From an uncultured Spirochaetota bacterium (GTDB lineage: Bacteria; Spirochaetota; Spirochaetia; JAFGXN01): a stretch of DNA of 64,000 nucleotides. Below, one piece after another: positions 11,568 to 53,955 of this stretch. The translations under genes were made by a program, and so were the position numbers. A model generated the notes under the pieces. The model was not told the origin of the DNA, ran no database searches, and saw only the letters and a program-made list of their open reading frames with translations. Location of the stretch: assembly GCA_944390005.1 (NCBI GenBank), contig CALXOJ010000003.1:175329-239328 (forward strand), written 5' to 3'. Position 1 is the stretch's first letter; each line of letters begins with the position of its first letter.

Positions 11568-11636
11568 CAGTCTATCACAGTTAAATATAAAAAAAAAGGG
11601 CTTGCCGTTTTATTTCAAAAAAATTATCATAATAAT

Positions 11637-11942
11637 ATGAAGTTGCTTGATCAGAATTCGTCCTCCCGTCGGAAAAAACCGACAGTACAGCAACCGCATC
11701 TTTATCACATTGTATGGATTCATTCGCTTGACGTCGACAGCCGCGATGCAGCGGAGTTGCTGAGGCTTTCGTTTCGCTTTCGAGAGGCGGATATCGATAA
11801 ATTAATAAAAAAAAGTCGGGATGGGGAGCGTACCGTTATCGGGACTTACTCGTTTGATGTAGCTCGATCCAAAATGGCAGCGGTCCGCGATACGGCGGCG
11901 GCGCTTCGCCTTTCGTTCCCTTTTTTAATGGAGAGAGAATAG
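11637..11942 (+). CDS. clpS: ATP-dependent Clp protease adaptor ClpS
   Basis: The 101-aa product matches the ClpS fold pattern (PHLYHIVWIHSLDVDS...ERTVIGTYSFDVARSKMAAV). It sits immediately upstream of, and abuts, clpA. The start is re-placed at ATG 11637. The longer ORF from 11547 would run into the divergent upstream gene's start. Confidence 0.7.
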   Translation: MKLLDQNSSSRRKKPTVQQPHLYHIVWIHSLDVDSRDAAELLRLSFRFREADIDKLIKKSRDGERTVIGTYSFDVARSKMAAVRDTAAALRLSFPFLMERE

Positions 11943-14269
11943 TGGATATTTCCGATGAACTGCAGCTGGCTTTAAACCGCTCTTACCGGATAGCAAAAAA
12001 AAATCGGCACGAATTTGTCACTCCGGAGCATATTCTTTTAGCGCTTTTGGAATACGATACGATCGGACGGCTGTTCGAGATTATGGACATTTCTGTTGAA
12101 GGTTTTGCGTGGGAGTTGGAGACGTATCTGGATGCAACAATGCCGACGGTTGACGGTGAAAATCCCACGGAGAGTATCGGTTTTAAAGAAATTCTGGAAG
12201 ACGCAATTCATTTTGCCCGTTATGCCGATGCGGAAGCTGTTGATATCGGCGATGTGTTAATGGCGATGATGGAGCAGGAAGAGTCATTCGCTGCGTATTT
12301 ACTCAGCCGCAACGGAATTACCGACCGTGCGTTTGCCGACGCCGTTGCCGCAGCGGATCGATTCGGATCCGGCAGCGTTTTCGGTGAAGGGTGGCCCTCT
12401 GATTTTTCGGATGAAGAAGACGGCGGATGGGAGCGTAAAGATGACAACGAAATTTTATCTGAGCTGACCGTCGACTTAACTGCTGCAGCTGCCGAACGCA
12501 AACTGCCGCCGTTTATTGGCCGAGAAGAACTGCTGCAAACGGTGCAGTCGATTTTACTTCGCAGCCGGAAGTGCAATCCGCTGTTAATCGGTGATCCCGG
12601 CGTCGGAAAAACGGCACTGGCGGAAGGGCTTGCGCAGCGCATCGTTCGGAAAAAAGTGCCGCCGTTTTTGCTCGGACGGAAACTCCTTTCCCTTGACGTC
12701 GGCTCCCTGGTTGCCGGGACAAAATACCGCGGTGAATTCGAAATGCGGATGAAACGGCTGCTCTCTGTGCTGGAGAAAGATGATTCAATTATTCTGTTTA
12801 TTGATGAAATTCATACGCTGATGGGGGCCGGTGCCGGTGAAACCAACAAACTCGATGCGGCCAATATGCTGAAAGCCAAATTAACCGGCAGCCGCCTGAT
12901 TTGTATCGGTGCGACGACTTTCGAAGAATTTAAAAAGAAGATTGAACCGGAAAAGGCATTCCTGAGACGGTTTCAGGTTGTCGAAATACCGGAACCGACA
13001 GCCGGCGAAACCGAAGAGATTGTAAGGCATATACGGACGCGTTTTGAACGGTTTCACGACGTACGCATTCCGATGAAAACCGCCCGCCGAGCTGTCGGGT
13101 TGACGGATCGGTGGCTTAAAGAGCGCAAACAGCCGGATAAAACCATTGATTTACTGGATACGGTGTGCGCTGACGTTCGTTTCAACGGGTACAAAAACGG
13201 CAAAAACGACGGTCTGATCGTTACGGATGTCGATTTGGAGCAGACGGTTGCCAAAATGGCAGGATTGCCGCCGGAAAAACTCGGAGAGTCGGACGAGCAG
13301 CGGCTGATGAAGTTGGAAACGGTCTTGAAAGCGTCGGTTTTCGGACAGGACGCCGCCGTGGAGACGGTTGCATCCGCTGTTAAACGGGCTTATGTCGGCT
13401 TCCGAAAGGAAAATTTGCCGATCGCCTCCCTGCTGTTTATCGGACCGACCGGCGTCGGCAAAACGGAGCTGTCGAAACAGTTGGCGTCGGCGCTCGGAAT
13501 CGATTTGATTCGATTCGATATGAGCGAATACCAGGAGAAGAGCTCTGTCGCCCGCTTTATCGGTGCGCCTCCGGGGTACGTCGGTTATCAGGAGGGAGGC
13601 GTTCTCATCGATGCGGTACGGCGTAAACCGAATGCGGTACTGCTTTTGGACGAAATCGAAAAAGCGTGTCCCGATATTTTCAACATGCTTCTGCAAGTGA
13701 TGGACTACGCCGTTTTAACCGATTCGCTCGGAAGAAAAGCCGATTTCAGCCGAATTGTGTTGATTATGACCGGTAATATCGGATCCGGTGATTGGGAGAA
13801 AAATGCCATCGGTTTTGAAAGCACCGCGGGAAACCGCACTGCCGAATCGTTGAAAGAAGTTTTTTCTCCCGAATTCCGCAATCGTCTCGATGGAGTCGTT
13901 CGATTCAATAAACTGACTGAAGAGCAAGTGCGGAAAATCATCCTCAGAGAGATTGACCTCTTTTCCGCTCAGCTGAAAAAACGCAGCGTTTCGCTCTCGC
14001 TCGGTAACGGCGTTGTCGATTGGCTGACAAAAAAAGGTTTCAGCAGGGAGTTCGGCGCCCGTCCGGCGGTTGGCGTTGTTGAAACCGAATTGAAGGCGCT
14101 GTTTCCCGACGAGATGTTGTTTGGCTTTCTGAAAAAAGGCGGACGCGCGCGTGTGGAAATGGAAAACGGCCGGCTGCGGATCAAGCCGCCCTCCGAAAAA
14201 TTCGATCTTTCACGGCTTTTAAAAGGAAAGAAAAATGACAAAGGGAGAGAAGGCGAAAGCGCGGTTTAA
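11942..14269 (+). CDS. clpA: ATP-dependent Clp protease ATP-binding subunit ClpA
   Basis: A ClpA N-domain precedes two AAA+ modules with Walker A motifs GDPGVGKT and GPTGVGKT. A ClpS gene lies directly upstream. 775 aa. Confidence 0.9.
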   Translation: MDISDELQLALNRSYRIAKKNRHEFVTPEHILLALLEYDTIGRLFEIMDISVEGFAWELETYLDATMPTVDGENPTESIGFKEILEDAIHFARYADAEAVDIGDVLMAMMEQEESFAAYLLSRNGITDRAFADAVAAADRFGSGSVFGEGWPSDFSDEEDGGWERKDDNEILSELTVDLTAAAAERKLPPFIGREELLQTVQSILLRSRKCNPLLIGDPGVGKTALAEGLAQRIVRKKVPPFLLGRKLLSLDVGSLVAGTKYRGEFEMRMKRLLSVLEKDDSIILFIDEIHTLMGAGAGETNKLDAANMLKAKLTGSRLICIGATTFEEFKKKIEPEKAFLRRFQVVEIPEPTAGETEEIVRHIRTRFERFHDVRIPMKTARRAVGLTDRWLKERKQPDKTIDLLDTVCADVRFNGYKNGKNDGLIVTDVDLEQTVAKMAGLPPEKLGESDEQRLMKLETVLKASVFGQDAAVETVASAVKRAYVGFRKENLPIASLLFIGPTGVGKTELSKQLASALGIDLIRFDMSEYQEKSSVARFIGAPPGYVGYQEGGVLIDAVRRKPNAVLLLDEIEKACPDIFNMLLQVMDYAVLTDSLGRKADFSRIVLIMTGNIGSGDWEKNAIGFESTAGNRTAESLKEVFSPEFRNRLDGVVRFNKLTEEQVRKIILREIDLFSAQLKKRSVSLSLGNGVVDWLTKKGFSREFGARPAVGVVETELKALFPDEMLFGFLKKGGRARVEMENGRLRIKPPSEKFDLSRLLKGKKNDKGREGESAV

Positions 14270-14702
14270 AGAGGGTTATAACTGTGCTCAGTCGGTTGTT
14301 GCGGCGTTCGCTCCGGAGATTTCTTTGGGTACCGGTCTGGATTCACAACGGTTGACGGCTGCCGTCAGCGGTTTCGGCGGCGGTATGGGGCGGATGCGTG
14401 AAGTGTGCGGCGCTGTCTCCGGAGCTGTTGCCGTTCTCGGCTTTTTGACCGGATATTCGGATCCGAACGATTCCGCTGCCAAAAAAGAGATGTACGGTCG
14501 GGTCCGCGAATTGATGAATGCCTTCAAAGATCGCAATGGTTCGTGCATTTGCCGCGAGTTGTTAGCCGGAACGAATGCCGACGACGGTTGCGTTCCGGAG
14601 GAGAGAACTGCCGAATACTACAGAAAGCGTCCGTGTGCCGATTTGGTTGAAACGGCGGCCGATCTTTGTGCGGAAATTTTACAAAAATACAACCGTTCTT
14701 AA
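14235..14702 (+). CDS. C_GCAxxG_C_C family putative redox-active protein
   Basis: The family's three signature elements appear in order: N-terminal GYNCAQSV, central CGAVSGA (C-G-A-x-x-G), C-terminal CICRE (C-x-C). It overlaps the clpA 3' end by 35 nt. Confidence 0.65.
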   Translation: MTKGEKAKARFKEGYNCAQSVVAAFAPEISLGTGLDSQRLTAAVSGFGGGMGRMREVCGAVSGAVAVLGFLTGYSDPNDSAAKKEMYGRVRELMNAFKDRNGSCICRELLAGTNADDGCVPEERTAEYYRKRPCADLVETAADLCAEILQKYNRS

Positions 14703-21153: not shown

Positions 21154-22308
21154 ATGCATAAAGTTCCGATCGCTCAATTAAAAATCAATACTTATTACAC
21201 ATCTCCTCTCTTTTGGGATGGGTATATTATTTTATATCCCAATTTGCCGATTACCGAAGATCTGCTTAATCGGTTAAATCAGTGGCATTGTACAGAAGTC
21301 GAAACTTCCGGGTGGCCGTCCGAATCGATTCCGAGTTTAAAAATGGATCCGTTTTTGGAATCCGTTGTCGACAGCAGAGGGAAAGTTTTCAAGAAAGAAG
21401 GCGACGGACTTCGTTCAATTGAATCGGTGCTTTCACGTGTTTACTCTGTTTGCCGAGGAACAGAGAAGATTGACGTCAATGCCTTCTTCGAATTTGCCAA
21501 GGATTTCAGAGCGATGATAGCCGGTGATCTTTCTGTGTATCTGACGGTTCCGGTCTCCGATTTTGCGGAGAGTGACTATTTGATTGCGCAGTCTGTTCGA
21601 ACGGCTGTGCTTTCATTTGCCGTCAGCGAAGCACTGAAAATTCCTTTATACCGACAGCTGGAGTTGATTACGGCCGCTTTGCTGCATAAAATCGGAATGG
21701 TGAAAATTCCGAAGATCGTTTACTTGAAAGAAGGCACATTGAGCGAAAAAGAAACAGAATTAATTCGTTTTTATCCGGTTTTGGGTGCACGGATTTTGAA
21801 AGCGAACGGCTTTAGTAATGAAGTCATTCAAGGCGTTTTGGAGCATCAGGAAGCGTATGACGGTTCGGGATATCCGCAGCACTTGGTGGGAGAGGGAATT
21901 TCTCTTTTTGGTCGAATTTTGAATGTTGCTTCTTCGTTTTGCGCCATGACGGCATTTCGTCCGTATCGAAGCGAGATTAAAAACGAAAGCAGCAGTATTT
22001 TAAAAATTCTTCAAGGAGCCAAAAAAGAGTACGATCCGAACATTTGCCGCACTTTGTTGGGAATTCTTTCGCTCTATCCTATCGGAACGATGGTTTTATT
22101 GGCAAATAATTCTGTTGCGGTCGCCGTGAAAGTCAACCCCGATAATCCCAAAGCTCCTTATGTCAAACTGCTGACCGATTCATCGGGAAAACCTGTGATG
22201 AATGAGCAAATATTCGATACACAACGGGATGATTTTCAAATTATCCGCGTATTGACCGATGATGAAGCGCAAAATGTCAAAAATTTATTTGCGGAAAAGC
22301 GCAAATGA
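21154..22308 (+). CDS. HD-GYP domain protein with degenerate metal-binding motif (HK in place of HD), N-terminal domain of unknown function
   Basis: The C-terminal half matches HD-GYP (AYDGSGYPQHL...RILNVASSFCAMTAFRPYR). The canonical HD dipeptide reads HK (ALLHKIGM). The HHE triad reads EHQE. Confidence 0.7.
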   Translation: MHKVPIAQLKINTYYTSPLFWDGYIILYPNLPITEDLLNRLNQWHCTEVETSGWPSESIPSLKMDPFLESVVDSRGKVFKKEGDGLRSIESVLSRVYSVCRGTEKIDVNAFFEFAKDFRAMIAGDLSVYLTVPVSDFAESDYLIAQSVRTAVLSFAVSEALKIPLYRQLELITAALLHKIGMVKIPKIVYLKEGTLSEKETELIRFYPVLGARILKANGFSNEVIQGVLEHQEAYDGSGYPQHLVGEGISLFGRILNVASSFCAMTAFRPYRSEIKNESSSILKILQGAKKEYDPNICRTLLGILSLYPIGTMVLLANNSVAVAVKVNPDNPKAPYVKLLTDSSGKPVMNEQIFDTQRDDFQIIRVLTDDEAQNVKNLFAEKRK

Positions 22309-25361: not shown

Positions 25362-25424
25362 ACCGTTAAAAACACGGCTGCCGCTAATTTATACAAAATA
25401 AAACATTTTTTCATTTAATTCTCT

Positions 25425-25451
25425 TGACTTCTCATTAATCTGTGTTATGAT
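25425..25451 (+). promoter_or_regulatory. putative promoter of the astacin-like gene (TTGACT + extended -10 TGTTATGAT)
   Basis: TTGACT at 25425-25430. TGn-TATGAT at 25443-25451. RBS AGGGGGAG 4 nt before ATG 25472. Confidence 0.4.
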
Positions 25452-25471
25452 TTCAAATACAGGGGGAGAAA

Positions 25472-28400
25472 ATGATTCGAAAGTGTTTTTTTGTTGCAGG
25501 AATTCTGTTTTTTATCGGATGTCCGGCCTCGGAAGCTCAATACATTTATTTTGTCAATCAAAGCGGAGTGATTCTGCAGAAAGTTGAAATTCAAAATATG
25601 CAAAATCCCGACGGGAACGGCATCAAATATGAGAATCTCGGTGTAAATGAAAATTTTTCTTTGGAAAAGATGGATCTCGGTTTTTATCAAATCATTGTCC
25701 GCAGTGAAAAGTATGTCGGAACTTACACTGTGCTGCTGTCGGAGCAGCGCCCTTCCGCTACCTGTTGCCTGACTCCCGATTTCCGGTTGACTCATTCCGT
25801 TTCCGATTCCGTGAGGTTTCAGTCGTCGTCAGCTCTGACCCGGTTAAGCGCTCGGATTGATACGGTTTTGGAAGAGAGCCGGCGTGCCTGTGAAGATGCA
25901 AAAAATAAATATGCCGGGTTGATTGCCGGTTACCTTCCCGGAGGAGTGAGGATCTTATTTAACGGAGCGGAACTGAATACAGAGGAAGCTGTATTTGAGA
26001 ATATCGAGCATTTCGGGGAGTTTGAGATAACGTATTCAAATGATATTATTAAAAACGAAATCAATGACGGATTTTCCGTAATTTACCGGGAGTTTTTAAA
26101 CGCCCGTCCGGATCCGTTACAAAATATGCTGGAAATAAACGGTTTGTGCGGCGCTTCCGAGGACGAGGAGTATCTTTATTTTGAAGGGAATGCGGTCAGC
26201 AAACTTAACTTCGGAGCAGCCGCTTTCATTAAAATGTTATGCGGAATTTCAGAGATAGATCCGCCAACCGTAAAAGGATATCGAAACGATGTCTCTCCGA
26301 TTTGGGAGGAGGGTTACCGATATGCGTTTAAAGAAAATTTTTCCGAATCCGAAAAAAACTTTTTCCGCGAACGGTTGGCAGAATGGATGGAGGTTATTGA
26401 TAACCGGAGTTACTCGGCAAGTCAAATTCAATCCGAGTTTGAAATTCCGGCAGGAACACATCAATATAATTTATGGCATATCGGATGCTATTATTTGGGG
26501 ATGATCTATAAAAAGGACAGAAAGGAGGATGATTACTACGACAGCGGAAGCGGATTGTCGGGATTCCCCGGGAAAATGCCTTGGCAATGGATTACTCTTT
26601 ACGGAAAGGGCGTAGAAAGCAAACGTATTGTTTTACACGAAATCGGTCATAATTTGGGATTGATGCACGAACATCAGCGGTGGGACAGCGTAAATCATTT
26701 GCTTGATACGGAGGATTCCGTGCAATGGACACGGCTTCCCGGAAATCAGAAAACCGGTTATGATATTAATTCCGTTATGCATTATACTTCCATTGACTCT
26801 GGGCGAACCTCCGTTCATGATATTCATGGAAATATTGCCGCAAATTCAGGCTATTTGTCCGAGCTCGATAAAATCTTTATCTCCCGCTTATACAACCCCC
26901 ATTATTCCGGAAATCAATACCAATCGCCGGTTCCCGTGGTTGACAGAATTTTAATAAAGGATTCGAACGGGAAAAATCTGGCTATTTTTCATGAGGAAAA
27001 TGTGACCGGAGAATCTTTTGAAATGAGCGAGCCGGCGTCACTGAAAGATGATGTCTGGTTTGAGAGTGACGGCGTGGTTGCTGATAAAAAAAGAATCAAA
27101 TTGATTGAAAAGGGGGCTTTGGAACTCCCCGGAGGAAATGATCAGCCGACTCTGCCAAGAAAAGAGTATAACCGGTACGGTTTTTCTTATCAATCGGGGT
27201 ATGGAGACAAAGTTTATTACGTCGACGCCCGTTATACGAACAAAGTTGATATTTATATCAGGAAATTTGAATGGCAGAAACTGTCAACCCCTTCTCCGTA
27301 CAAACTGTATCACGGCAGCGAGTACAGTATTATGACTGTTCCTTTAACCGAGGCTTTGAACCGGATAGAGATTGTTTCGACAACCGTAAACGGATATTCG
27401 GTCAAATATATTTTCAATATAATAAAGGAAGAACAGTCATTGGAGTCTGTCCGCGCGCAGCTTTCCGGAGAGACGGTTTTTGAAAAAGATTCCGATGAAC
27501 TTCATCTTTCCCGTGTTTTTTACCTGAACTATATTTATAACGGAACTCCGCTTACATTATCCGCAGGGACAAAAACCGGGCAGACTGTGACAGTGAACGG
27601 AGCGGCTCAGACAAGTTGCTCCCTCAATTTAGAAAAAAATGAGTCCCGTCGGATTGATATCGAAGTCGGCTCTCTTTTTTCGGAACAAAAAACAACCTAC
27701 ACTTTTTATATTCAATGTCTTGATGAAGTTGCCGTTCCCGAGTCGGTTAAAATAACGTCGGGAGACGGAACCGTACTGGCGCAGGAGTCCGATGTTTGGA
27801 AATATTTTGATAATACGACGACTGTTGAAATTTTAAAGTCACCGGCAGCGTCTACCGTGAATATTGACTTTACTCTAAAAGAAAATCAGAAGATTTTTTA
27901 CAGTTCCGACAGGCGTGACTATAAAGAAATGAACACAGCTTTTGAAATCAGTCTTCCGCAGGACGATTCCGTTCATGCCTTCCGTGTCGATTATGACTTT
28001 AACGGAATTGACGACTCAAAAATTTTTTATTTAAGGTTTCAGAAATATACATTTTATAATTGCCGTGTGACGGTTCGGCCGGGCGGTGCGGTTAAAATGG
28101 AGGATACGGTAATTACTTCCGGAAGCCGGAGTTTTCAATGTCAGTCAAACCGCGTATATACCGTTCAATGCCGGGGGGCAACGGGATTCCGTCCCGAGGT
28201 TCCGCCTTCTTTGACGGAAACCGTTTATGACGGTATCTACCGGTTTCAGTTTTCCGGCGACAGTAGTGTTACGGTGGATTTTCCGGCTGTTTATCCCAAT
28301 CGTTATGAACATAGCGCGACGCTCAATCCTAAGGGAGAAGAAATCGACTGCCGTACAATTATCGAAGGAAATGATCTGTCGGTCAACGGGAATACAATTT

Positions 28401-28666
28401 ACCTGAAAAGTCCTTCGTCGGGATATAAAGTCAGAATTTACAAAGAAGAAAAAGAAGGCGGATATTTGTATAAAAACGAACTTTGGCTTGAAGATAATTC
28501 CATTGTTTTGGCTAACAAGGGAGGGACCATGTATAACGGATGGGTTGAAAAGGAATTTTCCGGGAATAACGTTTTCCGCAGAAAACTGTACGCATTAAAG
28601 GCCGGTGAAAATTTATGGGATATTTCCGCTCCTGTTTCCGTATTTTACAGCGGTCCGGTTTTTTAA
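25472..28666 (+). CDS. astacin-like (MEROPS M12A-type) zinc metallopeptidase lipoprotein with ~600-aa C-terminal extension of unknown function
   Basis: The zinc site is HEIGHNLGLMHEHQRWD (astacin pattern HExxHxxGxxHE). A Met-turn SVMHY lies 45 aa downstream. An LSELDKIFISRLYNP segment follows, as in astacins. Signal peptide ends with lipobox-like FFIGC. Sampled 60-mers run 37-45% GC against 55-65% in core genes. Confidence 0.75.
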   Translation: MIRKCFFVAGILFFIGCPASEAQYIYFVNQSGVILQKVEIQNMQNPDGNGIKYENLGVNENFSLEKMDLGFYQIIVRSEKYVGTYTVLLSEQRPSATCCLTPDFRLTHSVSDSVRFQSSSALTRLSARIDTVLEESRRACEDAKNKYAGLIAGYLPGGVRILFNGAELNTEEAVFENIEHFGEFEITYSNDIIKNEINDGFSVIYREFLNARPDPLQNMLEINGLCGASEDEEYLYFEGNAVSKLNFGAAAFIKMLCGISEIDPPTVKGYRNDVSPIWEEGYRYAFKENFSESEKNFFRERLAEWMEVIDNRSYSASQIQSEFEIPAGTHQYNLWHIGCYYLGMIYKKDRKEDDYYDSGSGLSGFPGKMPWQWITLYGKGVESKRIVLHEIGHNLGLMHEHQRWDSVNHLLDTEDSVQWTRLPGNQKTGYDINSVMHYTSIDSGRTSVHDIHGNIAANSGYLSELDKIFISRLYNPHYSGNQYQSPVPVVDRILIKDSNGKNLAIFHEENVTGESFEMSEPASLKDDVWFESDGVVADKKRIKLIEKGALELPGGNDQPTLPRKEYNRYGFSYQSGYGDKVYYVDARYTNKVDIYIRKFEWQKLSTPSPYKLYHGSEYSIMTVPLTEALNRIEIVSTTVNGYSVKYIFNIIKEEQSLESVRAQLSGETVFEKDSDELHLSRVFYLNYIYNGTPLTLSAGTKTGQTVTVNGAAQTSCSLNLEKNESRRIDIEVGSLFSEQKTTYTFYIQCLDEVAVPESVKITSGDGTVLAQESDVWKYFDNTTTVEILKSPAASTVNIDFTLKENQKIFYSSDRRDYKEMNTAFEISLPQDDSVHAFRVDYDFNGIDDSKIFYLRFQKYTFYNCRVTVRPGGAVKMEDTVITSGSRSFQCQSNRVYTVQCRGATGFRPEVPPSLTETVYDGIYRFQFSGDSSVTVDFPAVYPNRYEHSATLNPKGEEIDCRTIIEGNDLSVNGNTIYLKSPSSGYKVRIYKEEKEGGYLYKNELWLEDNSIVLANKGGTMYNGWVEKEFSGNNVFRRKLYALKAGENLWDISAPVSVFYSGPVF

Positions 28667-28688
28667 CATACAGGAAAAGGAGGCGGAA

Positions 28689-30311
28689 ATGAAAAATGCG
28701 AATCTTTTATTGATTCTGTTGACTCTTTGCGGTTGCGGTATCCGGGTGGGAACACGGGAATATCTTCGCTACACGGTAGAAACTCAAACGCCGATTTATT
28801 ACTCGTTTAACGATCATCCGGATCGGATAAAATGGAAAGAACTGCCGGCAAACGGAAGTGTCGAATTTCGGGAAACCGGAGAATTGCTGCTGAGCCGCAG
28901 TACTGACAGCAAAGATATTTTTTACACTCTTTTTCTTCCTTTTTTTAATATGAAAGCGCTTGCGGGCGCCGAGAATTTTCTCCTGTCCAGATCGTCCCCG
29001 ACTTCGCCGCAGGAATACTATTACATGGAACGCATTCTCCTGAATAACGGCTGGGCGCGTTCCTATTCCCGGGAATCCGGACTTAATATTTATCGCTACA
29101 AGCTTACGGTCGATAAAGCGATGGCCGAAGGTCCGAGGACGGATGTGGACGATATTTTTTCCGATTATGTCGAACGAATTTCCGGTGAATACAGAAATGC
29201 TGTAGAATCCTGTATTCTGGTTTATATGATGGCCGATAACGATTTGTATCAGAAAGCTGTCGACGATATCAATCGACTGGAGAGTGCGTACAGAGGTGTC
29301 GGCGATATCTTGGTTCATTTTGACGGAGCCGTCGGAACTTTGTATTCGGAAGCGGTTTTGCTGCGTATCAGACACGACAAAACTCCCGAAATAGCAAGCG
29401 ATATTGTTATCCGTTACGGAGAAGCTGACTCCTGCAGTCGGGAGCATCTGAACAGAGTGCTGCGTGAGTCCAATGCGAGGGGACTTGTTCTTTGGGCTCA
29501 CGGAAGCGGATGGCTGCCGGCACTTTTGGAGAGCGAAGAGATGCCGGTGCAGGTGAATCCAACCCTTTCCCGTTCTTTGGGTCCGGATGAAGAAGCCGGA
29601 ACAGAGCTCGATACTTCACACTTTTTTAACGCTGTCGGCGATGTCGGACTGGAGTTTATTTTGTTCGATGCCTGCCGTATGTCCGGTGTTGAAGTTGTTT
29701 CGGAAGTGAATTCTCATACCAATATGATTGCGCCTGTTTTCGATATTCCTCCCGGCAGTTTTCCGTATGAGGAGGAGGCGTTCCTGAAGGCGTTGCTGCT
29801 CTACGATTGCCAGGCGATTGTTGATAAAATTGTCGGATATAATGAACTCGGCGGACGCGAGATTTTTATGACGTGGAAAAAAACGTATCCCGGTGAATTT
29901 TTGCCAACGGTTTTTGAGAATTTCCTGAAGGGCAAAGTGGCTTCCGACGGAACCAAAATTGATCTTTCCGTTATCCGCCCTAATGTCAGACCGGTTGTTG
30001 CGGCGCAAGCCGGTAATGCGGTTCTTTTCTATGATTTTTATGATTTTGTCAGGCAACTCAACGGCGGCGCCGAGGTCGATTCCGTCCGATCCTTTTTGAA
30101 CGAAAATTTTTACATGAAGTCGACTCCGACCGTTTTAAACGGCGAAACTTCTTCTGACTACTGCGGCCTTTCCTGTTATATTCCTTATCATCTGACAGAG
30201 ACCGACAATGCGGATTTACTGCAGCTTAACAGCGATTATCTGCAGACATGGTGGGCAAGAAAATCGAAGATTCAAGAATATATTTTGCCGGTTGTCGGCG
30301 AATCGCCTTAA
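28689..30311 (+). CDS. clostripain-like (peptidase C11 family) cysteine peptidase, secreted
   Basis: A VYMMADNDL strand is followed by a His in LVLWAHGSGW and a catalytic Cys in FILFDACRMSG about 55 aa later. This order and spacing are typical of C11/CD-clan peptidases. Start placed at ATG 28689 with RBS GGAAAAGGAGG. N-terminal signal MKNANLLLILLTLCGCG. Confidence 0.6.
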   Translation: MKNANLLLILLTLCGCGIRVGTREYLRYTVETQTPIYYSFNDHPDRIKWKELPANGSVEFRETGELLLSRSTDSKDIFYTLFLPFFNMKALAGAENFLLSRSSPTSPQEYYYMERILLNNGWARSYSRESGLNIYRYKLTVDKAMAEGPRTDVDDIFSDYVERISGEYRNAVESCILVYMMADNDLYQKAVDDINRLESAYRGVGDILVHFDGAVGTLYSEAVLLRIRHDKTPEIASDIVIRYGEADSCSREHLNRVLRESNARGLVLWAHGSGWLPALLESEEMPVQVNPTLSRSLGPDEEAGTELDTSHFFNAVGDVGLEFILFDACRMSGVEVVSEVNSHTNMIAPVFDIPPGSFPYEEEAFLKALLLYDCQAIVDKIVGYNELGGREIFMTWKKTYPGEFLPTVFENFLKGKVASDGTKIDLSVIRPNVRPVVAAQAGNAVLFYDFYDFVRQLNGGAEVDSVRSFLNENFYMKSTPTVLNGETSSDYCGLSCYIPYHLTETDNADLLQLNSDYLQTWWARKSKIQEYILPVVGESP

Positions 30312-30313
30312 AT

Positions 30314-30347
30314 AAAAGCCGGCGTCCGGTATACCGTTTCGGACGCC
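30314..30347 (-). terminator. putative Rho-independent terminator downstream of the EF-G paralog
   Basis: Hairpin CGGCGTCCG...CGGACGCCG at 30320-30348 is followed on the minus strand by CTTTTATTTA. Confidence 0.4.
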
Positions 30348-30361
30348 GCGACAGTCCCGCG

Positions 30362-33248: not shown

Positions 33249-33668
33249 TTTGGTTTTACCGACAGTGGTAATTCATACTCTCTTCCGCGCGCAGTTGATT
33301 CGGAGTTAGGCGGCTCTTCTGCGAATTCTTTAGAACGCGCCGTGCAGTAAGCCGCCGGGTTTGTTGCGTTCAGTCAATTTTTTACTGTTTAAAAGAGCTT
33401 ATTGCGGTTCTCGGGGTAGTTGCGTCCGAAATCCTTTGCCGGAAGCCGATCCTGCAAGGCGTGCGCCCCTTTTTCGGATCCGCCGCCTTCAACGCAGTCT
33501 CCTGTGCCTTTTGAACCGCCCACCGCCTCATTTGTTCTATTCTTTTGCTGCCCAAAAACGCATAAAAAAAAGAAAAAGTTTTTTCAAAAAAACCTCTTTT
33601 TTGACATTAATCATGATAGAGCGTATGTAAAAACTTCGCAGCAAAAGCCCCAAATCCGCGGAGGTGTT

Positions 33669-34451
33669 ATGAAAAACTACAGCGAACTGACCCTAACCGA
33701 CGACTACCTGTTCAGCCAAGTAATGAAAGACGAAAGCGTGTGCAAGCCGTTTCTGGAAATGCTTCTGGAAATCAAAATAGCCAAAATTGAGTATTTGCAG
33801 GAACAGAAAGAGTTGAACCTCTTCCCCGACTCCAAAGGCGTAAGGCTGGACGTCTACCTTGAAGGAGACGGAAAGGTGTACAACATCGAAATGCAGGCAG
33901 GACGCGATCAATACCTCATCTGCCGAATGCGCTACTACCGGGCGGCGATCGACATCGACATGATGATGAGAGGCAGCGGGTACCGGGAACTGAAACCCGT
34001 GTATATCATATTTCTCTGCCGATTTGACCCGATAGGGAAGGGATTGGCGAGGTACACGCTGAGGAAATACTGTGAGGAGACGGGAGAAAAAATCGATGAC
34101 GGACAGACGGAAATCGTGTATAATGTGAATGCGTATGAGAGAGCGGGGCGCGGGAAGGTACGGGAGCTTCTGAGGTATTTAGCGACCGGAGAGGCGCAGG
34201 AACCGGAGGTGAAGGAGTTTGCTAAGAAGATAGCCCGTTTTAAAGAGACGCAGCAGTGGAGAAAAGGAAACATGAAATACGAGTTAGATTTACAAGACGC
34301 CCGCATTGAAGGAAAGGAAGAGGGACGCAGTGAGACACTGCTGCTGATTATTGAGAATGGAGTGAAGCAAGGGTTAACGCCCGAGCAGACGGCGGCGCTG
34401 ACGGGGTTAACGGTTGACGAGGTGGAAGCACTGCGGAAGCGGATTCGGTAA
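33669..34451 (+). CDS. Rpn-family PD-(D/E)XK nuclease / 'putative transposase' (TIGR01784-like), copy 1
   Basis: The D...E.Q core is VRLDVYLEGDGKVYNIEMQ. The C-terminal low-complexity E/G repeat tail (EGKEEGRSE) and helix ...GLTPEQTAALTGLTVDEVEAL are typical of this family. The first 214 aa are identical to copy 2. Confidence 0.75.
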   Translation: MKNYSELTLTDDYLFSQVMKDESVCKPFLEMLLEIKIAKIEYLQEQKELNLFPDSKGVRLDVYLEGDGKVYNIEMQAGRDQYLICRMRYYRAAIDIDMMMRGSGYRELKPVYIIFLCRFDPIGKGLARYTLRKYCEETGEKIDDGQTEIVYNVNAYERAGRGKVRELLRYLATGEAQEPEVKEFAKKIARFKETQQWRKGNMKYELDLQDARIEGKEEGRSETLLLIIENGVKQGLTPEQTAALTGLTVDEVEALRKRIR

Positions 34452-34577
34452 AAACGATCGATTTTCAAATAAATCCGTTCTCGAAGCTCAAACCCGCCTT
34501 TACCCGCGCCCGGTTTTCCAAAGGCGTTTCGCTGCCCTAAACGGGAACGAAAGTTGCCTCAAAAGACACAAAACACC

Positions 34578-34860
34578 GCGTTAAAGACGACAGATTCTCA
34601 AACGCAACCCACCGCAGTCGAAGCTTAAAATATTGCGTTAAAATCCACTGATTCGCCAAAGAAACTCACAGCTATCGAAGTTTACCCACTACGTTAAAAT
34701 CCACCGATTCGCCAAAGAAACCCGCCGCAGCCGAAGCTCAAAATATTGCGTTAAAGGCCTCTGATTCGCCAAAGACATCAAACATTGCGAAGTCAAAAAA
34801 TTCCCTTTAAAGGCGGCAGATTCTCAAATAAAACCACAGCGGTATTAAATAAAGACGCAA
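34578..34860. repeat. tandem array of ~5 degenerate 56-57-bp repeats downstream of Rpn copy 1
   Basis: Units start at 34578, 34635, 34691, 34748 and 34804. The consensus is roughly GCGTTAAAATCCACCGATTCGCCAAAGAAACCCACCGCAGCCGAAGCTCAAAATATT. The same family lies at 39601-39815. Confidence 0.7.
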
Positions 34861-35741
34861 ACACGATTGTCTTGGAGTCGAGCGCTGTGACGGAGGGCTC
34901 AAACACGTATACGGCAACTTTATCCGCGTTCGGATACACGAATTTACAGTTGAGTTGGGCGAATGTAGAGATCGACAAAACCGCCCCCTTACAAATTCTT
35001 GGTGTTTCGTTTGATAGGACAGCGGATGGAACCTCTGTCACCGCTAACTGGACCTTGCCGAATGGACATGACATTGCCAAAGTCGTTTTCACTGAATTGG
35101 TCGGCAATGGAAATACTTCTTCAGACAGCGTAAATGCGTCGCACGTTACAGACAAAGAAGGCGGTATCGTTGCAGAATTTTCTATAACAGGGGCAAATGA
35201 AACCAGCGGTGTTATTGATGATTTAACAGCTGACGCCCCCTATTGGTTCATGGTTCACACTGAAGACGCGGCGGGCAACAAAAGCGTGCGCGCAAGGGAT
35301 AGCGTCGCCGGAACTGTTGCGCCGGACGACAACGGCTTCATGGTGCGGTTCACTTCATCTCAACTGGATGAAGAAGCGCCTTACATAACGAATGCAACCG
35401 GTTATTTTGACGGGACGCATTACATTTTTTCATGGGATAATCCGAACGGATACGACGTTAAGATTGCCAAAAAAGGTGCAAATTTGGCACTTGGAGAGAG
35501 CGACGGCAGCTCAGAAGGCATCGTTGAATGGATCACGGATGAAACCGACAGCAACAAGAAAATCGGCGCAAAAGTCAAACTGGGTGAGGTGACAAATTCC
35601 TACAATTTCCGTTTGATGGTTTACGCGACGGATTCAGATACGGCTTCAACCAATACACCTGATACAACCAATGACTTTCAAGCGTTCTGTCTTTTCTATT
35701 TCCCGGAAAATCAGGCCAATGAGGTTACGCCTGCAAATTAA
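34785..35741 (+). pseudogene. 5'-truncated fragment of a fibronectin-type-III-like surface protein gene
   Basis: The ORF starts at a TTG inside the repeat array, and its first ~25 codons are translated repeat sequence. There is no signal peptide. The downstream part shows two FN3-like modules (e.g. DKTAPLQILGVSFDRTADGTSVTANWTLPNGHD) and ends at a strong terminator. Confidence 0.35.
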
Positions 35742-35746
35742 CCATT

Positions 35747-35773
35747 GGCGTCCCTGCGGGGACGCTTTTTTTT
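35747..35773 (+). terminator. Rho-independent terminator
   Basis: Stem-loop GGCGTCCC-TGCG-GGGACGC followed by T8. Confidence 0.7.
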
Positions 35774-35810
35774 CTTTTGTCCCTCTTTTCAAAAAAAAAT
35801 AAAAAAAAAG

Positions 35811-35839
35811 TTGACAAATAGAGGGGGGGGGGGACAATA
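35811..35839 (+). promoter_or_regulatory. putative promoter of the sulfatase gene with the G11 tract in the spacer
   Basis: TTGACA at 35811-35816. A 17-nt spacer (35817-35833) ends in the G11 run. A weak -10-like ACAATA lies at 35834-35839. A9-T-A9 AT-tracts sit upstream (35781-35799). Confidence 0.4.
35823..35833. repeat. homopolymeric G11 tract
   Basis: Eleven consecutive G at 35823-35833, the only long poly-G in the window. Confidence 0.95.
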
Positions 35840-35876
35840 ATAGTAAATAGAAAAAAATTTTAAAAGAGGTATAATT

Positions 35877-38231
35877 ATGAAGAAGCGTAAATCAGCACTT
35901 TCTTTATTATCGGTAACAGCGGCGTTATTGGCGGGCGGCTGCCCCGAAACGCCGCCGATTGAGTCGCAGACGCCTGGAGGGGATACGGAAAATCCCGGAG
36001 GCGGCGGTACAGTGACGCCGTCCGGCCGCATGAATATCATTTTGTTCATGGTTGACGACATGGGGCTTAACGACTCGTCGGTTCAGTTTTTGGAGGGCGG
36101 TTCGAAATTGAACGAATATTACCACACTCCGAATATGGAGCGGTTGGCAGAAAAGGGGGTCCGCTTTACAAGCGCTTACGCCGCGCCCGTATCCTCGCCG
36201 ACGCGCATTAGTTTGATGACAGGTTCCAACGCAGCGCGCCACCGCGTGACCAACTGGACACTGAATCTCAATGACAACACTGATGCCTCGTTTCAAAATA
36301 ATTTGGCAGGACAGCCGTGGAACTGGAACGGTATTTCTCCCGATGTTAACGGTGACGTAACCTCAAACAACATTTATGAAACCACAACATTCCCACAGAT
36401 TTTACAAAAAAACGGGTACCGCACCATCCACCTCGGAAAGGCGCACTGGGGGGCTATCAGCACAAAGGCGGCTGAACCGCTGAACCTCGGTTTTGACGTC
36501 AATATCGGCGGGGCGGCGCCGGGAGGTCCGGATAACTATGCCCTTACTAATGCTTCACAGGAGTACACCGGTTTTCAAATCCCATTTCCGCGTCTCAATG
36601 AATACGCGACAGCCGAAACAAATTACCACATTACCGACGCGATTACCAACGCCGCGCGGTCGGAGATTGACCGCGCCGTCGAGGACGGAACGCCGTTTTA
36701 TATGTACATGTCGCACTACGCCGTCCATTCGCCGTATACTCAGCCAGATGAGCGCTTTTACAAATTCTACGAGGGTAAATCAACAGCTGACCAGACGATT
36801 TACGGAACGAGGAACAAGAACTACGGAACGCTGGTCACCGGTATGGATAAATCCCTCGGCGAGCTGATGGATTACTTGGAAGAAAAAGGGATTGCCGATA
36901 AAACCATCTTGATTTTTATGGCTGACAACGGCGGACACCATGATAACAAAAATACGCCGCTTAGAGGCTCAAAAGGATCGATGTGGGAAGGCGGTATTCA
37001 TGAGCCGATGATGGTTTACTGGCCGGGCGTGACCGATGCTTATGCCGGTCAAAAGAATGATTCGCCTGTCATAATTGAAGATTTTTATCCGACAATTTTG
37101 GAAATGGCAGGCGTCGCTCCCGGAAGTTACGACAGCGAACTGAAGCAGACTGTCGACGGCAAGAGCTTTGTATCTGCGTTAAAAGGCAATAAGCCCATCA
37201 ATACCGATCGCGCACTCTATTTTCATTATCCGAACAAGTGGGGGGAGGCAACTACTCTGAATAGTGATCCCGTCGGTTTTCCGTCAAGCGCCATCATCAA
37301 AGACGGATGGAAGTACATTTATTTCTACGGCACCGGTAAAGAATATCTCTTCAATCTGACAGCAGACGAAATTGAAGAGACAAATTTGGCAGAGACTAAT
37401 GCCGAGAAAAAAGCAGAATTGGCGAAAGATTTGTCCGATTACCTGAAATCGGTCGACGCAACCATGGTTTATGACAGCACTTCGGGAGTGATTACTTATC
37501 CGGACGGCACAACGGATAATGCATTTACATACAAAGTGGGAGACGACAATGTCTTTTACATCGATATCAACGATCAAAACGGATCGGTAGAGAATGAGCC
37601 GTTAGCCGGCCGCGGTGCACACACTGGTGCGGTAACAGAAGAAGACAACTTCACGATTTCTTTTGAAGATGGAACAGAAGTGACCGGTTCGATAGCGTGG
37701 ACCGGCACTGTAAAACCCAACGGTGACAACGGAAGGTTTGCTTCTGTGGAAGAAGCCAATGCGTTCGGCAGCCTGTTCTCCGGTTTCACAAAAGAAGAAA
37801 CTTTAAGCAATGCTCTGCTTCCTGTTTGGGCGGATGCGGTAACGCTGGAGACGGATAGTCCTTCGGCTGTCATTCTATTGGAAGGCCTGCCTGAAGGAAC
37901 ATACGAAATCGGTTTGCTGAGTGTGCGCAATAACAGCTACTACGGAACGAACAACGGCAGTCTGATTAAAAACGCTGTTTACGACATAACCACCGGAACC
38001 GTAAGCGAGGCACAAGCTTTCGGAACCAAGAAAAACGTTGCCGACAGCAATTTGACAGATAAAGCGGTGCTGTCTGAAACCGATAAGTTTACCGTGAATC
38101 AAGACGCCGGTACGGACTCCGAAGTGTGGGGTTTCCGTTTCAGCTGGACAGTGACTCCCGAAAATGAAAGGATTGAAATCACTGTTTCCGGAACCTGCTC
38201 CTTGAATGCGTTGAGAGTCGAAAAACGTTGA
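35877..38231 (+). CDS. Ser-type sulfatase lipoprotein with ~230-aa C-terminal module of unknown function
   Basis: Lipoprotein signal MKKRKSALSLLSVTAALLAGGC. The sulfatase signature S-S-P-T-R-ISLM-TG has Ser at the formylglycine position. The metal-binding DDMG is near the N-terminus. A C-terminal extension from ~aa 553 is homologous to the C-terminus of the 62082-63764 protein. Confidence 0.85.
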   Translation: MKKRKSALSLLSVTAALLAGGCPETPPIESQTPGGDTENPGGGGTVTPSGRMNIILFMVDDMGLNDSSVQFLEGGSKLNEYYHTPNMERLAEKGVRFTSAYAAPVSSPTRISLMTGSNAARHRVTNWTLNLNDNTDASFQNNLAGQPWNWNGISPDVNGDVTSNNIYETTTFPQILQKNGYRTIHLGKAHWGAISTKAAEPLNLGFDVNIGGAAPGGPDNYALTNASQEYTGFQIPFPRLNEYATAETNYHITDAITNAARSEIDRAVEDGTPFYMYMSHYAVHSPYTQPDERFYKFYEGKSTADQTIYGTRNKNYGTLVTGMDKSLGELMDYLEEKGIADKTILIFMADNGGHHDNKNTPLRGSKGSMWEGGIHEPMMVYWPGVTDAYAGQKNDSPVIIEDFYPTILEMAGVAPGSYDSELKQTVDGKSFVSALKGNKPINTDRALYFHYPNKWGEATTLNSDPVGFPSSAIIKDGWKYIYFYGTGKEYLFNLTADEIEETNLAETNAEKKAELAKDLSDYLKSVDATMVYDSTSGVITYPDGTTDNAFTYKVGDDNVFYIDINDQNGSVENEPLAGRGAHTGAVTEEDNFTISFEDGTEVTGSIAWTGTVKPNGDNGRFASVEEANAFGSLFSGFTKEETLSNALLPVWADAVTLETDSPSAVILLEGLPEGTYEIGLLSVRNNSYYGTNNGSLIKNAVYDITTGTVSEAQAFGTKKNVADSNLTDKAVLSETDKFTVNQDAGTDSEVWGFRFSWTVTPENERIEITVSGTCSLNALRVEKR

Positions 38232-38252
38232 CAGCAGCCGATTGGCTCTTTT

Positions 38253-38277
38253 GGCGCCCCTTTTGGGGCGCTTTTTT
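38253..38277 (+). terminator. Rho-independent terminator of sulfatase gene
   Basis: GGCGCCCC-TTTT-GGGGCGC followed by T6. Confidence 0.65.
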
Positions 38278-38643
38278 GTATTTCGGGCGCGTGCGCGCCG
38301 CAAGCGGCGCGCACCGGGCTTTCCGCTGCAATTCGCAGCCTCCCGCGCCTTTACCGAGGCAAAGCTGCCGCTTTGCCCTGCGCCATCTCTCCGTCGGCAG
38401 CTCATTTCCGCTCCAATCCCTCGCGCCTTCGAAAGCGTGCGCCCCTTTTTCGAATCCGCCGCCTCCAACGCAGTATCCTGTGCCTTTTGAGTCTCATACA
38501 GCCTCATTTGTTCTATTCTTTTGCTGCCCAAAAACGCATAAAAAAAAGAAAAAGTTTTTCAAAAAAACCTCTTTTTTGGCATTAATCATGATAGAGCGTG
38601 TGTAAAAACTTCGCAGCAAAAGCCCCAAATCCGCGGAGGTGTT

Positions 38644-39474
38644 ATGAAAAACTACAGCGAACTGACCCTAACCGACGACTACCTGTTCAGCCAAGTAATG
38701 AAAGACGAAAGCGTGTGCAAGCCGTTTCTGGAAATGCTTCTGGAAATCAAAATAGCCAAAATTGAGTATTTGCAGGAACAGAAAGAGTTGAACCTCTTCC
38801 CCGACTCCAAAGGCGTAAGGCTGGACGTCTACCTTGAAGGAGACGGAAAGGTGTACAACATCGAAATGCAGGCAGGACGCGATCAATACCTCATCTGCCG
38901 AATGCGCTACTACCGGGCGGCGATCGACATCGACATGATGATGAGAGGCAGCGGGTACCGGGAACTGAAACCCGTGTATATCATATTTCTCTGCCGATTT
39001 GACCCGATAGGGAAGGGATTGGCGAGGTACACGCTGAGGAAATACTGTGAGGAGACGGGAGAAAAAATCGATGACGGACAGACGGAAATCGTGTATAATG
39101 TGAATGCGTATGAGAGAGCGGGGCGCGGGAAGGTACGGGAGCTTCTGAGGTATTTAGCGACCGGAGAGGCGCAGGAACCGGAGGTGAAGGAGTTTGCTAA
39201 GAAGATAGCCCGCTTTAAAGAGACGCAGCAGTGGAGGAAAGGAAACATGAAATACGAATTAGACTTACAAGACGCCCGTGCGGAAGGCATTGAAATCGGA
39301 CGAAGCGAAGGGCTGGAAGAAGGATTGGAGAAAGGCCATTCCGAGGGACGTTATGAAATGGCTGTCCTTATCACAGAAAATATGATGAAGCAAGGATTAA
39401 CGCCCGAACAGACGGCGGCGCTGACGGGGTTAACGGTTGACGAGGTGGAAGCACTGCGGAGGCGGATGCGGTAA
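38644..39474 (+). CDS. Rpn-family PD-(D/E)XK nuclease / 'putative transposase' (TIGR01784-like), copy 2
   Basis: Identical to copy 1 over the first 214 aa. It has a longer C-terminal E/G-repeat tract (AEGIEIGRSEGLEEGLEKGHSEGRYEMAVLITENMM), 16 aa more than copy 1. Confidence 0.75.
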   Translation: MKNYSELTLTDDYLFSQVMKDESVCKPFLEMLLEIKIAKIEYLQEQKELNLFPDSKGVRLDVYLEGDGKVYNIEMQAGRDQYLICRMRYYRAAIDIDMMMRGSGYRELKPVYIIFLCRFDPIGKGLARYTLRKYCEETGEKIDDGQTEIVYNVNAYERAGRGKVRELLRYLATGEAQEPEVKEFAKKIARFKETQQWRKGNMKYELDLQDARAEGIEIGRSEGLEEGLEKGHSEGRYEMAVLITENMMKQGLTPEQTAALTGLTVDEVEALRRRMR

Positions 39475-53883: not shown

Positions 53884-53955
53884 TCGGAGTGGCGAGACTT
53901 GAACCCGCGACTTCTGCGTCCCGAACGCAGCGCGCTACCACTGCGCTACACCCCG
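53884..53955 (-). tRNA. tRNA-Pro (anticodon CGG)
   Basis: Hand-folded cloverleaf. Acceptor CGGGGUG/CACUCCG (one G-U). D-stem GCGC. Anticodon stem CTGCG/CGCAG with loop TTCGGGA. T-loop TTCAAGT. 72 nt, no encoded CCA. Confidence 0.8.

Follow-up and report, generated by a model that had tools for sequence, protein, structure and literature searches.

Astacins (peptidase family M12A) are zinc endopeptidases for which a 2023 review counts more than 25,000 holozoan sequences and fewer than 400 elsewhere (PMC9848320); few bacterial members have been studied, namely flavastacin, myroilysin and LegP. The origin and the activation of bacterial astacins are open questions of the field (PMC9848320). The DNA described here is a 64,000-nucleotide stretch (the window) of contig CALXOJ010000003.1 from an uncultured Spirochaetota bacterium (GenBank assembly GCA_944390005.1, positions 175,329 to 239,328, forward strand). 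It contains a gene for a 1064-residue lipoprotein with an astacin catalytic domain, followed directly by a gene for a C11 (clostripain-family) cysteine peptidase. An initial annotation of this DNA had called bacterial astacins rare; this agrees with the published counts, and metagenomic data hold many more.

Animal astacins have short, unstructured pro-segments. These follow the rule FXGDI, in which the Asp replaces the catalytic water and acts as an aspartate switch (PMC9848320). Activation by a C11 peptidase is known from another metzincin, BFT (fragilysin): fragipain removes the N-terminal pro-domain of pro-BFT, a predicted lipoprotein, between R211 and A212 and releases the toxin (PMC8406203). 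C11 enzymes cleave after Lys or Arg and have been proposed to self-mature in trans as membrane-inserted lipoproteins (10.1101/522870).

The window protein is proposed to be a zymogen of the astacin type, made in an operon with the C11 peptidase, which would cut after K268 and so activate and release the enzyme. We consider this reading probable, by a modest measure. Its family assignment, domain layout, conserved operon and intact active sites follow from sequence comparison and predicted structure.

Gene product and astacin domain

The features that define the gene and its catalytic domain are as follows.

25472..28666, plus strand: pro-astacin lipoprotein gene, 1064 aa (open reading frame (ORF) listing, 12 full-length natural variants, six homologue clusters over the full length)
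25472..25522, plus strand: lipoprotein signal peptide MIRKCFFVAGILFFIGC, lipobox FIG/C, Cys17 (pattern read directly)
26276..26899, plus strand: astacin (M12A) catalytic domain, residues 269-476 (Pfam PF01400, profile built from outsiders only, PDB profile search, Foldseek)
26636..26686, plus strand: zinc site HEIGHNLGLMHEHQRWD, residues 389-405 (invariant in the family)
26771..26785, plus strand: Met-turn SVMHY (M436, Y438), residues 434-438 (S434, M436, H437 and Y438 invariant)

A search of 5.8 billion proteins found six clusters with full-length similarity to the window protein (99, 49, 38, 38, 29 and 30% identity). Pfam Astacin is present in 6/6 of them, and one cluster member is annotated as 'M12 family metallopeptidase [Spirochaetia bacterium]'. 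Conservation in the six-member alignment spans the entire length of the protein, and 12 distinct natural variants of the window protein, each of 1064 aa, keep every key residue, K268 and G269 included. From this it follows that the gene is real and intact and that its sequence is constrained. The six-member alignment shows no variation in the lipobox Cys, the entire zinc motif, the Met-turn or the C-terminal LY segment. A search with a mixed alignment at E <= 1e-5 gave three proteins. A literature search for spirochaete astacins gave nothing relevant; pallilysin is an unrelated HEXXH protease.

The signal peptide consists of MIRK, a hydrophobic core and F-I-G-C17. By this lipobox pattern the product is a bacterial lipoprotein of the signal peptidase II type, as the initial annotation had said on the basis of the ending FFIGC; Cys17 is invariant in 6/6 sequences. 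Only one other cysteine, C960, is invariant in the six-member family.

Residues ~269-476 are an astacin-family domain comprising the whole ~200-aa catalytic domain, by sequence profile and by predicted fold. The three motifs that had led to this assignment lie at residues 389-405 (HExxHxxGxxHE), 434-438 (SVMHY) and 460-474 (GYLSELDKIFISRLY, the astacin-like LSxxDxxxIxxLY segment), and all are invariant or nearly so in 6/6 family members. In the zinc site, H389-E-I-G-H393-N-L-G-L-M-H399-E400, which is itself invariant in 6/6, the predicted ligands are H389, H393 and H399, with E390 as general base and E400 as the family-specific Glu; E400 is also invariant in 27/27 sequences of a broader alignment. 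SVMHY aligns with SIMHY of TLL1, BMP1 and myroilysin; under the SxMHY rule its Tyr is the fifth zinc ligand.

Pfam Astacin matches at 34.2 bits (gathering cut-off 22.5), with only profile positions 73-152 covered. A profile made from outside relatives alone matches residues 273-475 over positions 4-204 of 204, at 97 bits. In a single-sequence search of the PDB the top 14 matches, at E < 0.1, are all astacins (TLL1, myroilysin, astacin, BMP1, hatching enzymes). With the full-length family profile, all 20 PDB matches at E < 0.05 are astacins, and the first non-astacin is a serralysin at E = 0.47. In a scan of 1.84 billion representatives, 59 listed proteins match a catalytic-domain profile of ~204 positions end to end. 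The combined catalytic profile also aligns end to end with PDB astacins: TLL1 at 1e-41, BMP1 at 4e-39, astacin at 1e-33, ZHE1, HCE1 and meprins at about 1e-29, and myroilysin at 1e-18; the best matrix metalloproteinase (MMP) or serralysin in this search has E >= 1e-5.

The predicted structure agrees. AlphaFold2 (AF2) was run on residues 119-490 with a 49-sequence alignment, giving a mean predicted local distance difference test (pLDDT) of 86 and a predicted template modelling score (pTM) of 0.88; a full-length model used six sequences, and in it the catalytic domain has pLDDT 25-45. The top 29 Foldseek matches of the 119-490 model in the PDB are all astacins (1ast: template modelling (TM) score 0.66, normalised by target), followed by MMP-13 (E = 0.025) and ADAMTS-5 (0.14). 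Serralysin, matrixin and reprolysin were considered as alternative families and rejected: the matrixin and reprolysin Pfam matches are sub-threshold and cover the zinc helix only, and these families fall far below astacins by profile and by fold. ADAMs, like MMPs and serralysins, also score far below astacins in the sequence profiles and the predicted fold. The initial annotation had proposed a Pfam PF01400 search and a structure prediction; both have been run, and both profile and fold give an astacin. It had also named two outcomes that would speak against an astacin, placement in another zincin family and an alignment limited to the short motif. Neither was found when looked for, since astacins head the profile and Foldseek lists and the alignment spans the whole domain.

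The domain departs from the canonical pattern in two respects. Firstly, the HEHxRxDRD tail reads HEHQRWDSV: R403 and D405 are kept and the final R-D is replaced, as in P0002-P0004. RxDRD is kept in P0005, P0006 and a group of ~390-aa relatives outside the family; it is a consensus feature that is not needed for membership. Secondly, astacin catalytic domains contain conserved disulfide bonds. The catalytic-domain cysteines, those of the canonical holozoan disulfides included, are not conserved in this family, and the window catalytic domain has a single Cys (339).

An astacin-type lipoprotein call would also come automatically from standard annotation. The conserved C11 partner, the structured pro-domain and the C-terminal domains are points absent from the initial annotation.

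Pro-domain and predicted maturation site

Three features precede the catalytic domain.

25538..25801, plus strand: N-terminal beta-rich domain, residues 23-110 (full-length AF2 model, eight strands, pLDDT 64-84)
25826..26257, plus strand: helical/mixed pro-domain, residues 119-262 (AF2 model of 119-490, region mostly with pLDDT > 90)
26264..26290, plus strand: exposed linker DPPTVKGYR, residues 265-273, with the predicted maturation site between K268 and G269 (pLDDT < 50, Trp spacing, K/R enrichment)

The initial annotation had placed ~380 aa before the zinc site. The number holds (~388 residues), although ~120 of them (269-388) belong to the catalytic domain; the rest are the beta domain (23-110) and the helical pro-domain (119-262). 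The beta domain is missing from the shorter homologue P0006 in the alignment.

The pro-domain contains an acidic motif, G227-x-x-E230-D231-E232, and a hairpin, Y234-LYF-EG-NAVS243, that carries F237-E-G-N-A241; the motif region (residues 227-241) corresponds to 26150-26194. G227, E230, D231, E232 and Y236 are invariant in the family. The animal FXGDI rule does not hold here: the window protein has F237-E-G-N240-A, with Asn likewise in P0002-P0004. The FEGNA region aligns with I-G-(G/D)-D-I of the ~390-aa relatives, and P0005, P0006 and these relatives have an Asp at an adjacent position. The Asn in FEGNA, the I-G-(G/D)-D-I of the relatives and the invariant upstream E-D-E together suggest, at the level of alignment, that the zinc-blocking residue has shifted within the clade; E230, D231, E232 and E238 are candidates for this residue. 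No conserved Cys is found in the family pro-region in the six-member alignment.

The linker at residues 265-273 is the sole low-confidence stretch near the domain boundary in the 119-490 model. The deposited catalytic-domain chain of TLL1 has the conserved Trp as its tenth residue; the N-terminus expected for the window protein is therefore G269 (Trp278 minus 9). In mature crayfish astacin the Trp is likewise residue 10, and the freed N-terminus pairs with the family-specific Glu. The window protein has the corresponding predicted geometry, with K268 followed by G269 in a disordered linker, and an invariant Glu400. Among 138 astacin domains, the position 10 residues before the Trp (-10) is the most K/R-enriched upstream position, with K/R in 30% of domains; most of the positions next to it have 4-13%. 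At -9, Gly, Ser or Ala predominates. Among the proteins of the family and its nearest relatives, 9/13 have K/R at -10 and 3/13 at -11.

Two alternatives to cleavage by the partner have been considered together: a reversed direction, with the astacin processing or activating the C11 peptidase, and a permanent regulatory N-terminal region in an enzyme that is active while lipid-anchored and uncut. In their favour, the pro-domain is large, structured and confidently packed on the catalytic domain in the predicted model (pTM 0.88), in contrast to the animal pro-segments, and in the window C11 protein a long insert separates the catalytic His from the catalytic Cys. Against them, C11 enzymes self-mature after Lys/Arg (10.1101/522870, PMC4850288), the invariant Glu400 should pair with an N-terminus newly made by cleavage, and the linker is disordered and has a conserved basic residue. 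A permanent N-terminus or a reversed direction is thus very improbable.

C11 partner gene and operon

The following features surround the gene pair.

25424..25451, plus strand: sigma-70-like promoter, TTGACT-16 nt-TATGAT with extended -10 TG (consensus scan, 10/12 matches; pattern match only)
28689..30311, plus strand: C11 (clostripain-family) cysteine peptidase lipoprotein, 540 aa (Pfam Peptidase_C11, motifs, PDB profile matches)
30320..30348, no strand assigned: GC-rich hairpin (CGGCGTCCG...CGGACGCCG) between the convergent C11 and EF-G-like genes (read from sequence)

The candidate promoter ends 20 nt before the astacin ATG, and a ribosome-binding site (RBS), GGGGGAG, lies at 25462-25468. 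The ATG of the C11 gene (28689) is 22 nt past the astacin stop codon and is preceded by a strong RBS, AAGGAGG, at 28677-28683; a terminator scan reported no terminator-like site in the 22-nt gap. The two genes are predicted to form an operon that is transcribed from its own promoter. The hairpin past the C11 gene has its T-tract on the minus-strand side and is not in the terminator scan output.

The partner is a C11 peptidase with an intact His/Cys dyad and a predicted Arg/Lys-specific S1 pocket. The window protein matches Pfam PF03415 at 63.4 bits (cut-off 25.8). The partner-family profile matches the C11 zymogen 6mzo (1e-26), fragipain 5dyn (9e-17) and PmC11 4yec (1.6e-14) in the PDB. The His of WxHGxxW and the sequence F-D-A-C are invariant among the partners, as is the Cys of the lipobox L-C-G-C (5/5). 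An Asp two residues before the catalytic Cys is also invariant; in Asp177-x-Cys179 this Asp is the conserved C11 S1 determinant for Arg/Lys (PMC4850288).

In 5/5 loci with enough sequence, the C11 gene lies 3' of the astacin gene on the same strand, with a gap of 9-46 nt:

window: gap 22 nt
L001: gap 19 nt
L002: gap 12 nt, two tandem C11 copies
L003: gap 9 nt
L007: gap 46 nt, C11 protein 32% identical to that of the window (E = 3e-79)

Flanking genes vary among the loci beyond L001. Between the window and L001, the astacin and C11 proteins are 49% and 48% identical, while the products of neighbouring genes are 64-93% identical.

The C11 genes themselves vary in copy number. L002, a lineage with 38% identity, has two tandem C11 paralogues after the astacin gene (11292-14475). 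The first copy scores 23.5 bits, below the Pfam threshold of 25.8, yet keeps WSHGTSW and FDACHM. L007 keeps only a divergent-type copy like the first copy of L002.

Proposed mechanism

The activation scheme joins these observations. Both lipoproteins would be lipid-anchored in one membrane. The C11 enzyme would self-mature and then cleave the exposed linker after K268. G269 would thereby become the new N-terminus, with the same nine-residue spacing to Trp278 that mature astacins have; this N-terminus would tuck against the family-specific Glu400. Because the lipid anchor sits on the pro-domain side, a single cut would both activate the astacin and free a 796-residue (~88 kDa) protease. The beta-sandwich tail would probably bind substrates or surfaces, and most likely the enzyme would degrade proteins outside the cell or in the periplasm, either as a source of nutrients or to remodel surfaces. 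The bond between K268 and G269 is proposed as the C11 cut because of the Lys/Arg specificity of C11 enzymes, the disordered linker and the fragipain precedent. We infer the cleavage site, the direction from C11 to astacin, the release step and the substrates from this combination.

Five points weigh against the scheme. The Asp of the animal FXGDI motif is replaced by Asn in the window protein. P0003 and P0004 have their basic residue at -11 rather than -10. The gene linkage rests on five loci, all from one narrow clade, and it would equally fit co-regulation of two independent digestive enzymes. Lastly, P0136, the closest of the ~390-aa relatives examined, combines a basic residue at -10 with a locus that lacks a C11 neighbour; a C11 partner is therefore no general requirement for such astacins.

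The main rival builds on the last two of these points: the pair would be two independent, co-expressed foraging proteases, with the astacin activated by itself or by another protease and the C11 enzyme not acting as a convertase. Their specificities would be complementary, C11 cutting after basic residues and astacins commonly having an acidic P1'; the title of PMC3186203 names an acidic prime-side preference of astacins. C11 enzymes can activate themselves and serve broad roles (10.1101/522870), and pro-BFT is also activated by host proteases when fragipain is absent (PMC8406203). Against independent proteases stand the strict adjacency in 5/5 loci (9-46 nt) despite differing flanks and the equal, accelerated divergence of astacin and C11. 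The conserved basic residue that falls, within a disordered linker, exactly on the maturation position of astacins, and the Arg/Lys-specific S1 Asp of the partner, also argue against them. Independence of the two enzymes is consequently a serious possibility, if a rather unlikely one.

Activation of the astacin by the C11 peptidase remains the preferred reading. A further step is to view the pair as a co-inherited two-protease module with a dedicated C11 convertase and release factor, latency based on a large folded pro-domain and a zinc block that is neither Asp nor Cys, and a cadherin-like tail that targets the released ~88-kDa enzyme; this fuller version is put forward tentatively.

C-terminal beta-sandwich chain

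Two features follow the catalytic domain.

26927..28663, plus strand: C-terminal chain of beta-sandwich domains, residues ~486-1064 (AF2 pLDDT 80-90, all-beta)
27329..27889, plus strand: divergent cadherin-like beta-sandwich domains (PF12733 type), ~620-806 (family-profile positions)

The initial annotation had described a ~600-aa C-terminal region without recognisable domains. The length is about right (~590 residues past the catalytic domain), but tandem beta-sandwich domains are predicted within it, the best-modelled part being residues 580-1043. A Foldseek search of the region gives only generic domain arrays (cadherin, Ig-like of the Ig/FN3 kind, macroglobulin and S-layer). Family-profile positions 622-806 match P0143, P0184 and P0263 with E 5e-17 to 2e-9; these proteins have 11-14 PF12733 cadherin-like repeats. 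The limits ~620-806 are family-profile positions, close to the residue numbering of the window protein. The window protein alone has a weak cadherin-like Pfam match at 701-747. Weak Phage_tube_2 and superantigen matches in the C-terminus were dismissed as noise.

Base composition and synteny

The astacin gene has a GC content of 0.429 and a third-position GC content (GC3) of 0.438; the means over the 44 window ORFs are 0.502 and 0.546 (z about -2.7), and the gene is the second lowest. The AT-rich patch reported in the initial annotation is real, although the contrast was overstated: clpA (11942-14269, identified by NCBIfam), which had been put at 0.55-0.65, has a GC content of 0.512. The gene with the lowest GC of the 44 ORFs encodes an HD_5 protein (21154-22308, plus strand; GC 0.428, GC3 0.431); low GC is therefore not specific to the astacin gene in the window. 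The HD_5 gene belongs to a block of conserved synteny, and in L001, too, its orthologue has a lower GC content (0.468) than the genes next to it.

The orthologue in L001 is 49% identical and shares the neighbourhood gltX-HD-PRK-mnmE-[astacin-C11]-EF-G with the window; the flanking proteins are 64-93% identical. The L001 astacin gene has a GC content of 0.392, compared with 0.539 in its flanks, so that the dip is stronger than in the window. With the same locus and the same dip in L001, the astacin gene must have been in place, and already AT-rich, before the deep split of the two lineages. In the low-GC relatives L002, L003 and L007, the GC content of the astacin gene equals that of its surroundings or is slightly below it.

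These data bear on the view that the gene is a recently acquired, animal-derived astacin serving as a virulence factor that degrades host extracellular matrix. In its favour are the GC and GC3 values about 2.7 standard deviations below the window mean. Astacins are also overwhelmingly holozoan, with bacterial ones proposed to be xenologues in animal-associated bacteria (PMC9848320), and a sulfatase gene lies nearby. Against it, the gene predates the split from a 49%-identity orthologue that has the same locus and dip amid neighbours at 64-93%, and in low-GC relatives its composition matches the flanks. Outside the family, the most closely related proteins are bacterial lipoproteins of ~390 aa encoded in metagenome-assembled genomes of Fusobacteriota and Paludibacteraceae, and a frog astacin scores similarly, that is, no better. 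The canonical disulfide cysteines and the FXGDI Asp are not conserved. An animal-derived virulence factor of recent arrival is accordingly improbable.

Recent acquisition of the gene, which the initial annotation had inferred, does not fit the compared sequences and is not borne out. The data may be explained by an old transfer in which the ancestor of the window and L001 lineages received the cassette from a low-GC spirochaete; a persistent composition bias specific to the gene may explain them as well. Bacterial astacins have been hypothesised to be of ancient holozoan origin (PMC9848320). This may apply to the window astacin, and the data neither favour nor counter it. A local GC dip need not mean recent gene transfer; here it is common to a distant syntenic orthologue.

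Other features of the window

Synteny with L001 stops directly after the EF-G-like gene. The region 33420-39474 of the window differs and contains four features:

33420-34451: PDDEXK_2 transposase-like gene
34785-35741: fn3-like ORF, 318 aa
35877-38231: sulfatase/SGSH-like gene, 784 aa
38644-39474: Rpn-family 'T_den_put_tspse' nuclease/transposase

In L001 the corresponding position is taken by a response-regulator-HD gene and an Hpt gene. The region 33420-39474 is possibly an insertion flanked by transposases, with a glycan sulfatase as its cargo.

Two neighbouring paralogues (54314-55666 and 56001-57563, plus strand) encode proteins with Listeria/Bacteroides-type repeats (TIGR02543) and a C-terminal domain like those of GldK/PorK and FGE-sulfatase-like lipoproteins. 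Five tRNA genes, including two adjacent pairs, are located at 53884-53955, 58003-58157 and 61856-62004; an Rfam scan of the whole window found no family besides tRNA at the gathering threshold. A gene at 62082-63764 (plus strand) encodes a TPR protein that weakly matches the C-terminal domain of FlcA, the periplasmic flagellar collar protein of spirochaetes, which fits a spirochaetal origin of the window. Three observations place the organism, which is Treponema-like, in the Spirochaetia: the NCBI name given to a member of the 49%-identity cluster, the synteny shared with that lineage, and matches to a Treponema-type transposase and to the flagellar collar protein. Housekeeping proteins looked up by exact match show the organism to be common in metagenomes.

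Comparison with known systems

The clade described here offers an unusual astacin architecture together with a genetically linked candidate activator. Its interest is above routine because a clade-restricted architecture, an atypical pro-domain and a strictly conserved C11 partner lead to a testable zymogen-convertase hypothesis. If this hypothesis is true, the fragipain/BFT principle, in which a clan CD peptidase activates and releases a lipoprotein metzincin, reaches another metzincin family and another phylum, with a simple two-gene system for its study. A dedicated two-protease module, as outlined above, would be the first pair of zymogen and convertase to be described for a bacterial astacin, and spirochaetes would have their first functional astacin system. 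Unless the organism is host-associated, the practical importance is modest.

Whole catalytic domains of animal astacins (1ast, 3lq0; BMP1/TLL1 3edh, 3edi; hatching enzymes, meprins) align with the window protein. Both have HExxHxxGxxHE, SxMHY with its Tyr, the family Glu and a Trp nine residues past the maturation site, which in the window protein is a predicted one; the window protein has a basic residue at the predicted P1, like furin- or trypsin-activated animal astacins. It differs in the degenerate RxDRD tail (RWDSV) and in the disulfide cysteines, which are not conserved. FEG(N)A occupies the position of FEGDI in crayfish astacin, with the switch Asp changed to Asn. The CUB, EGF, MAM and TRAF domains of animal astacins are absent from the window protein, which instead is anchored as a lipoprotein and carries a cadherin-like tail of bacterial type.

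Among bacterial enzymes, myroilysin of Myroides profundi (PDB 5zjk, 5gwd, 5czw) resembles the window protein, judging by the model of the latter, in being a zymogen with an astacin-fold catalytic domain. It is the best PDB match to the full-length family profile (2.6e-9), with an alignment that runs through the LS..DK.FI..LY segment; with the catalytic-domain profile it scores below the animal tolloids (1e-18 against 1e-41). Unlike the window protein, myroilysin is a small secreted enzyme of ~250 aa with a cysteine switch and no FXGDI (PMC9848320). The window protein is a lipoprotein of 1064 aa, in which the structured pro-domain takes up ~150 aa and the beta-sandwich tail ~580 aa; the latency motif of its clade differs from both the Asp switch of animal astacins and the Cys switch of myroilysin.

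LegP and flavastacin are also bacterial astacin-domain proteins. LegP is a ~265-aa type IV secretion (Dot/Icm) effector of Legionella and flavastacin a secreted O-glycosylated enzyme; neither has the architecture of the window protein. The NCBIfam LegP model matches the window protein weakly (19 bits against a cut-off of 300), and a LegP homologue is among the catalytic-domain search matches.

The closest proteins outside the family are the ~390-aa lipoprotein astacins P0134, P0136, P0139, P0144, P0145 and P0153 (70-93 bits). They share with the window protein the lipobox, part of the pro-region (from profile position ~140-190), the acidic motif with I-G-D-D-I, the basic residue at -10 and the catalytic domain. 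In contrast, they end right past the catalytic domain, have neither the beta-sandwich tail nor the N-terminal beta domain, and keep the canonical RxDRD; the one locus examined (P0136) is without a C11 neighbour. The next-best non-family matches, at about 82-103 bits with three matched stretches each, are P0133 (977 aa) and P0141 (1185 aa), which are large multidomain astacin-like metagenome proteins.

For the gene pair, the closest counterpart is BFT with fragipain. Pro-BFT, like the window protein, is a predicted lipoprotein pro-metzincin with an N-terminal pro-domain, and fragipain is an Arg/Lys-specific C11 lipoprotein, as predicted for the C11 partner; both junctions join a basic to a small residue, R211 to A212 in BFT and, as predicted, K268 to G269 in the window protein. 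The metzincin families differ, BFT being fragilysin/adamalysin-like and the window protein an astacin. The C11 link is experimentally proven for BFT, whereas for the window pair we infer it. Finally, fpn lies outside the bft pathogenicity island, whereas the astacin and C11 genes of the window family are adjacent at every locus.

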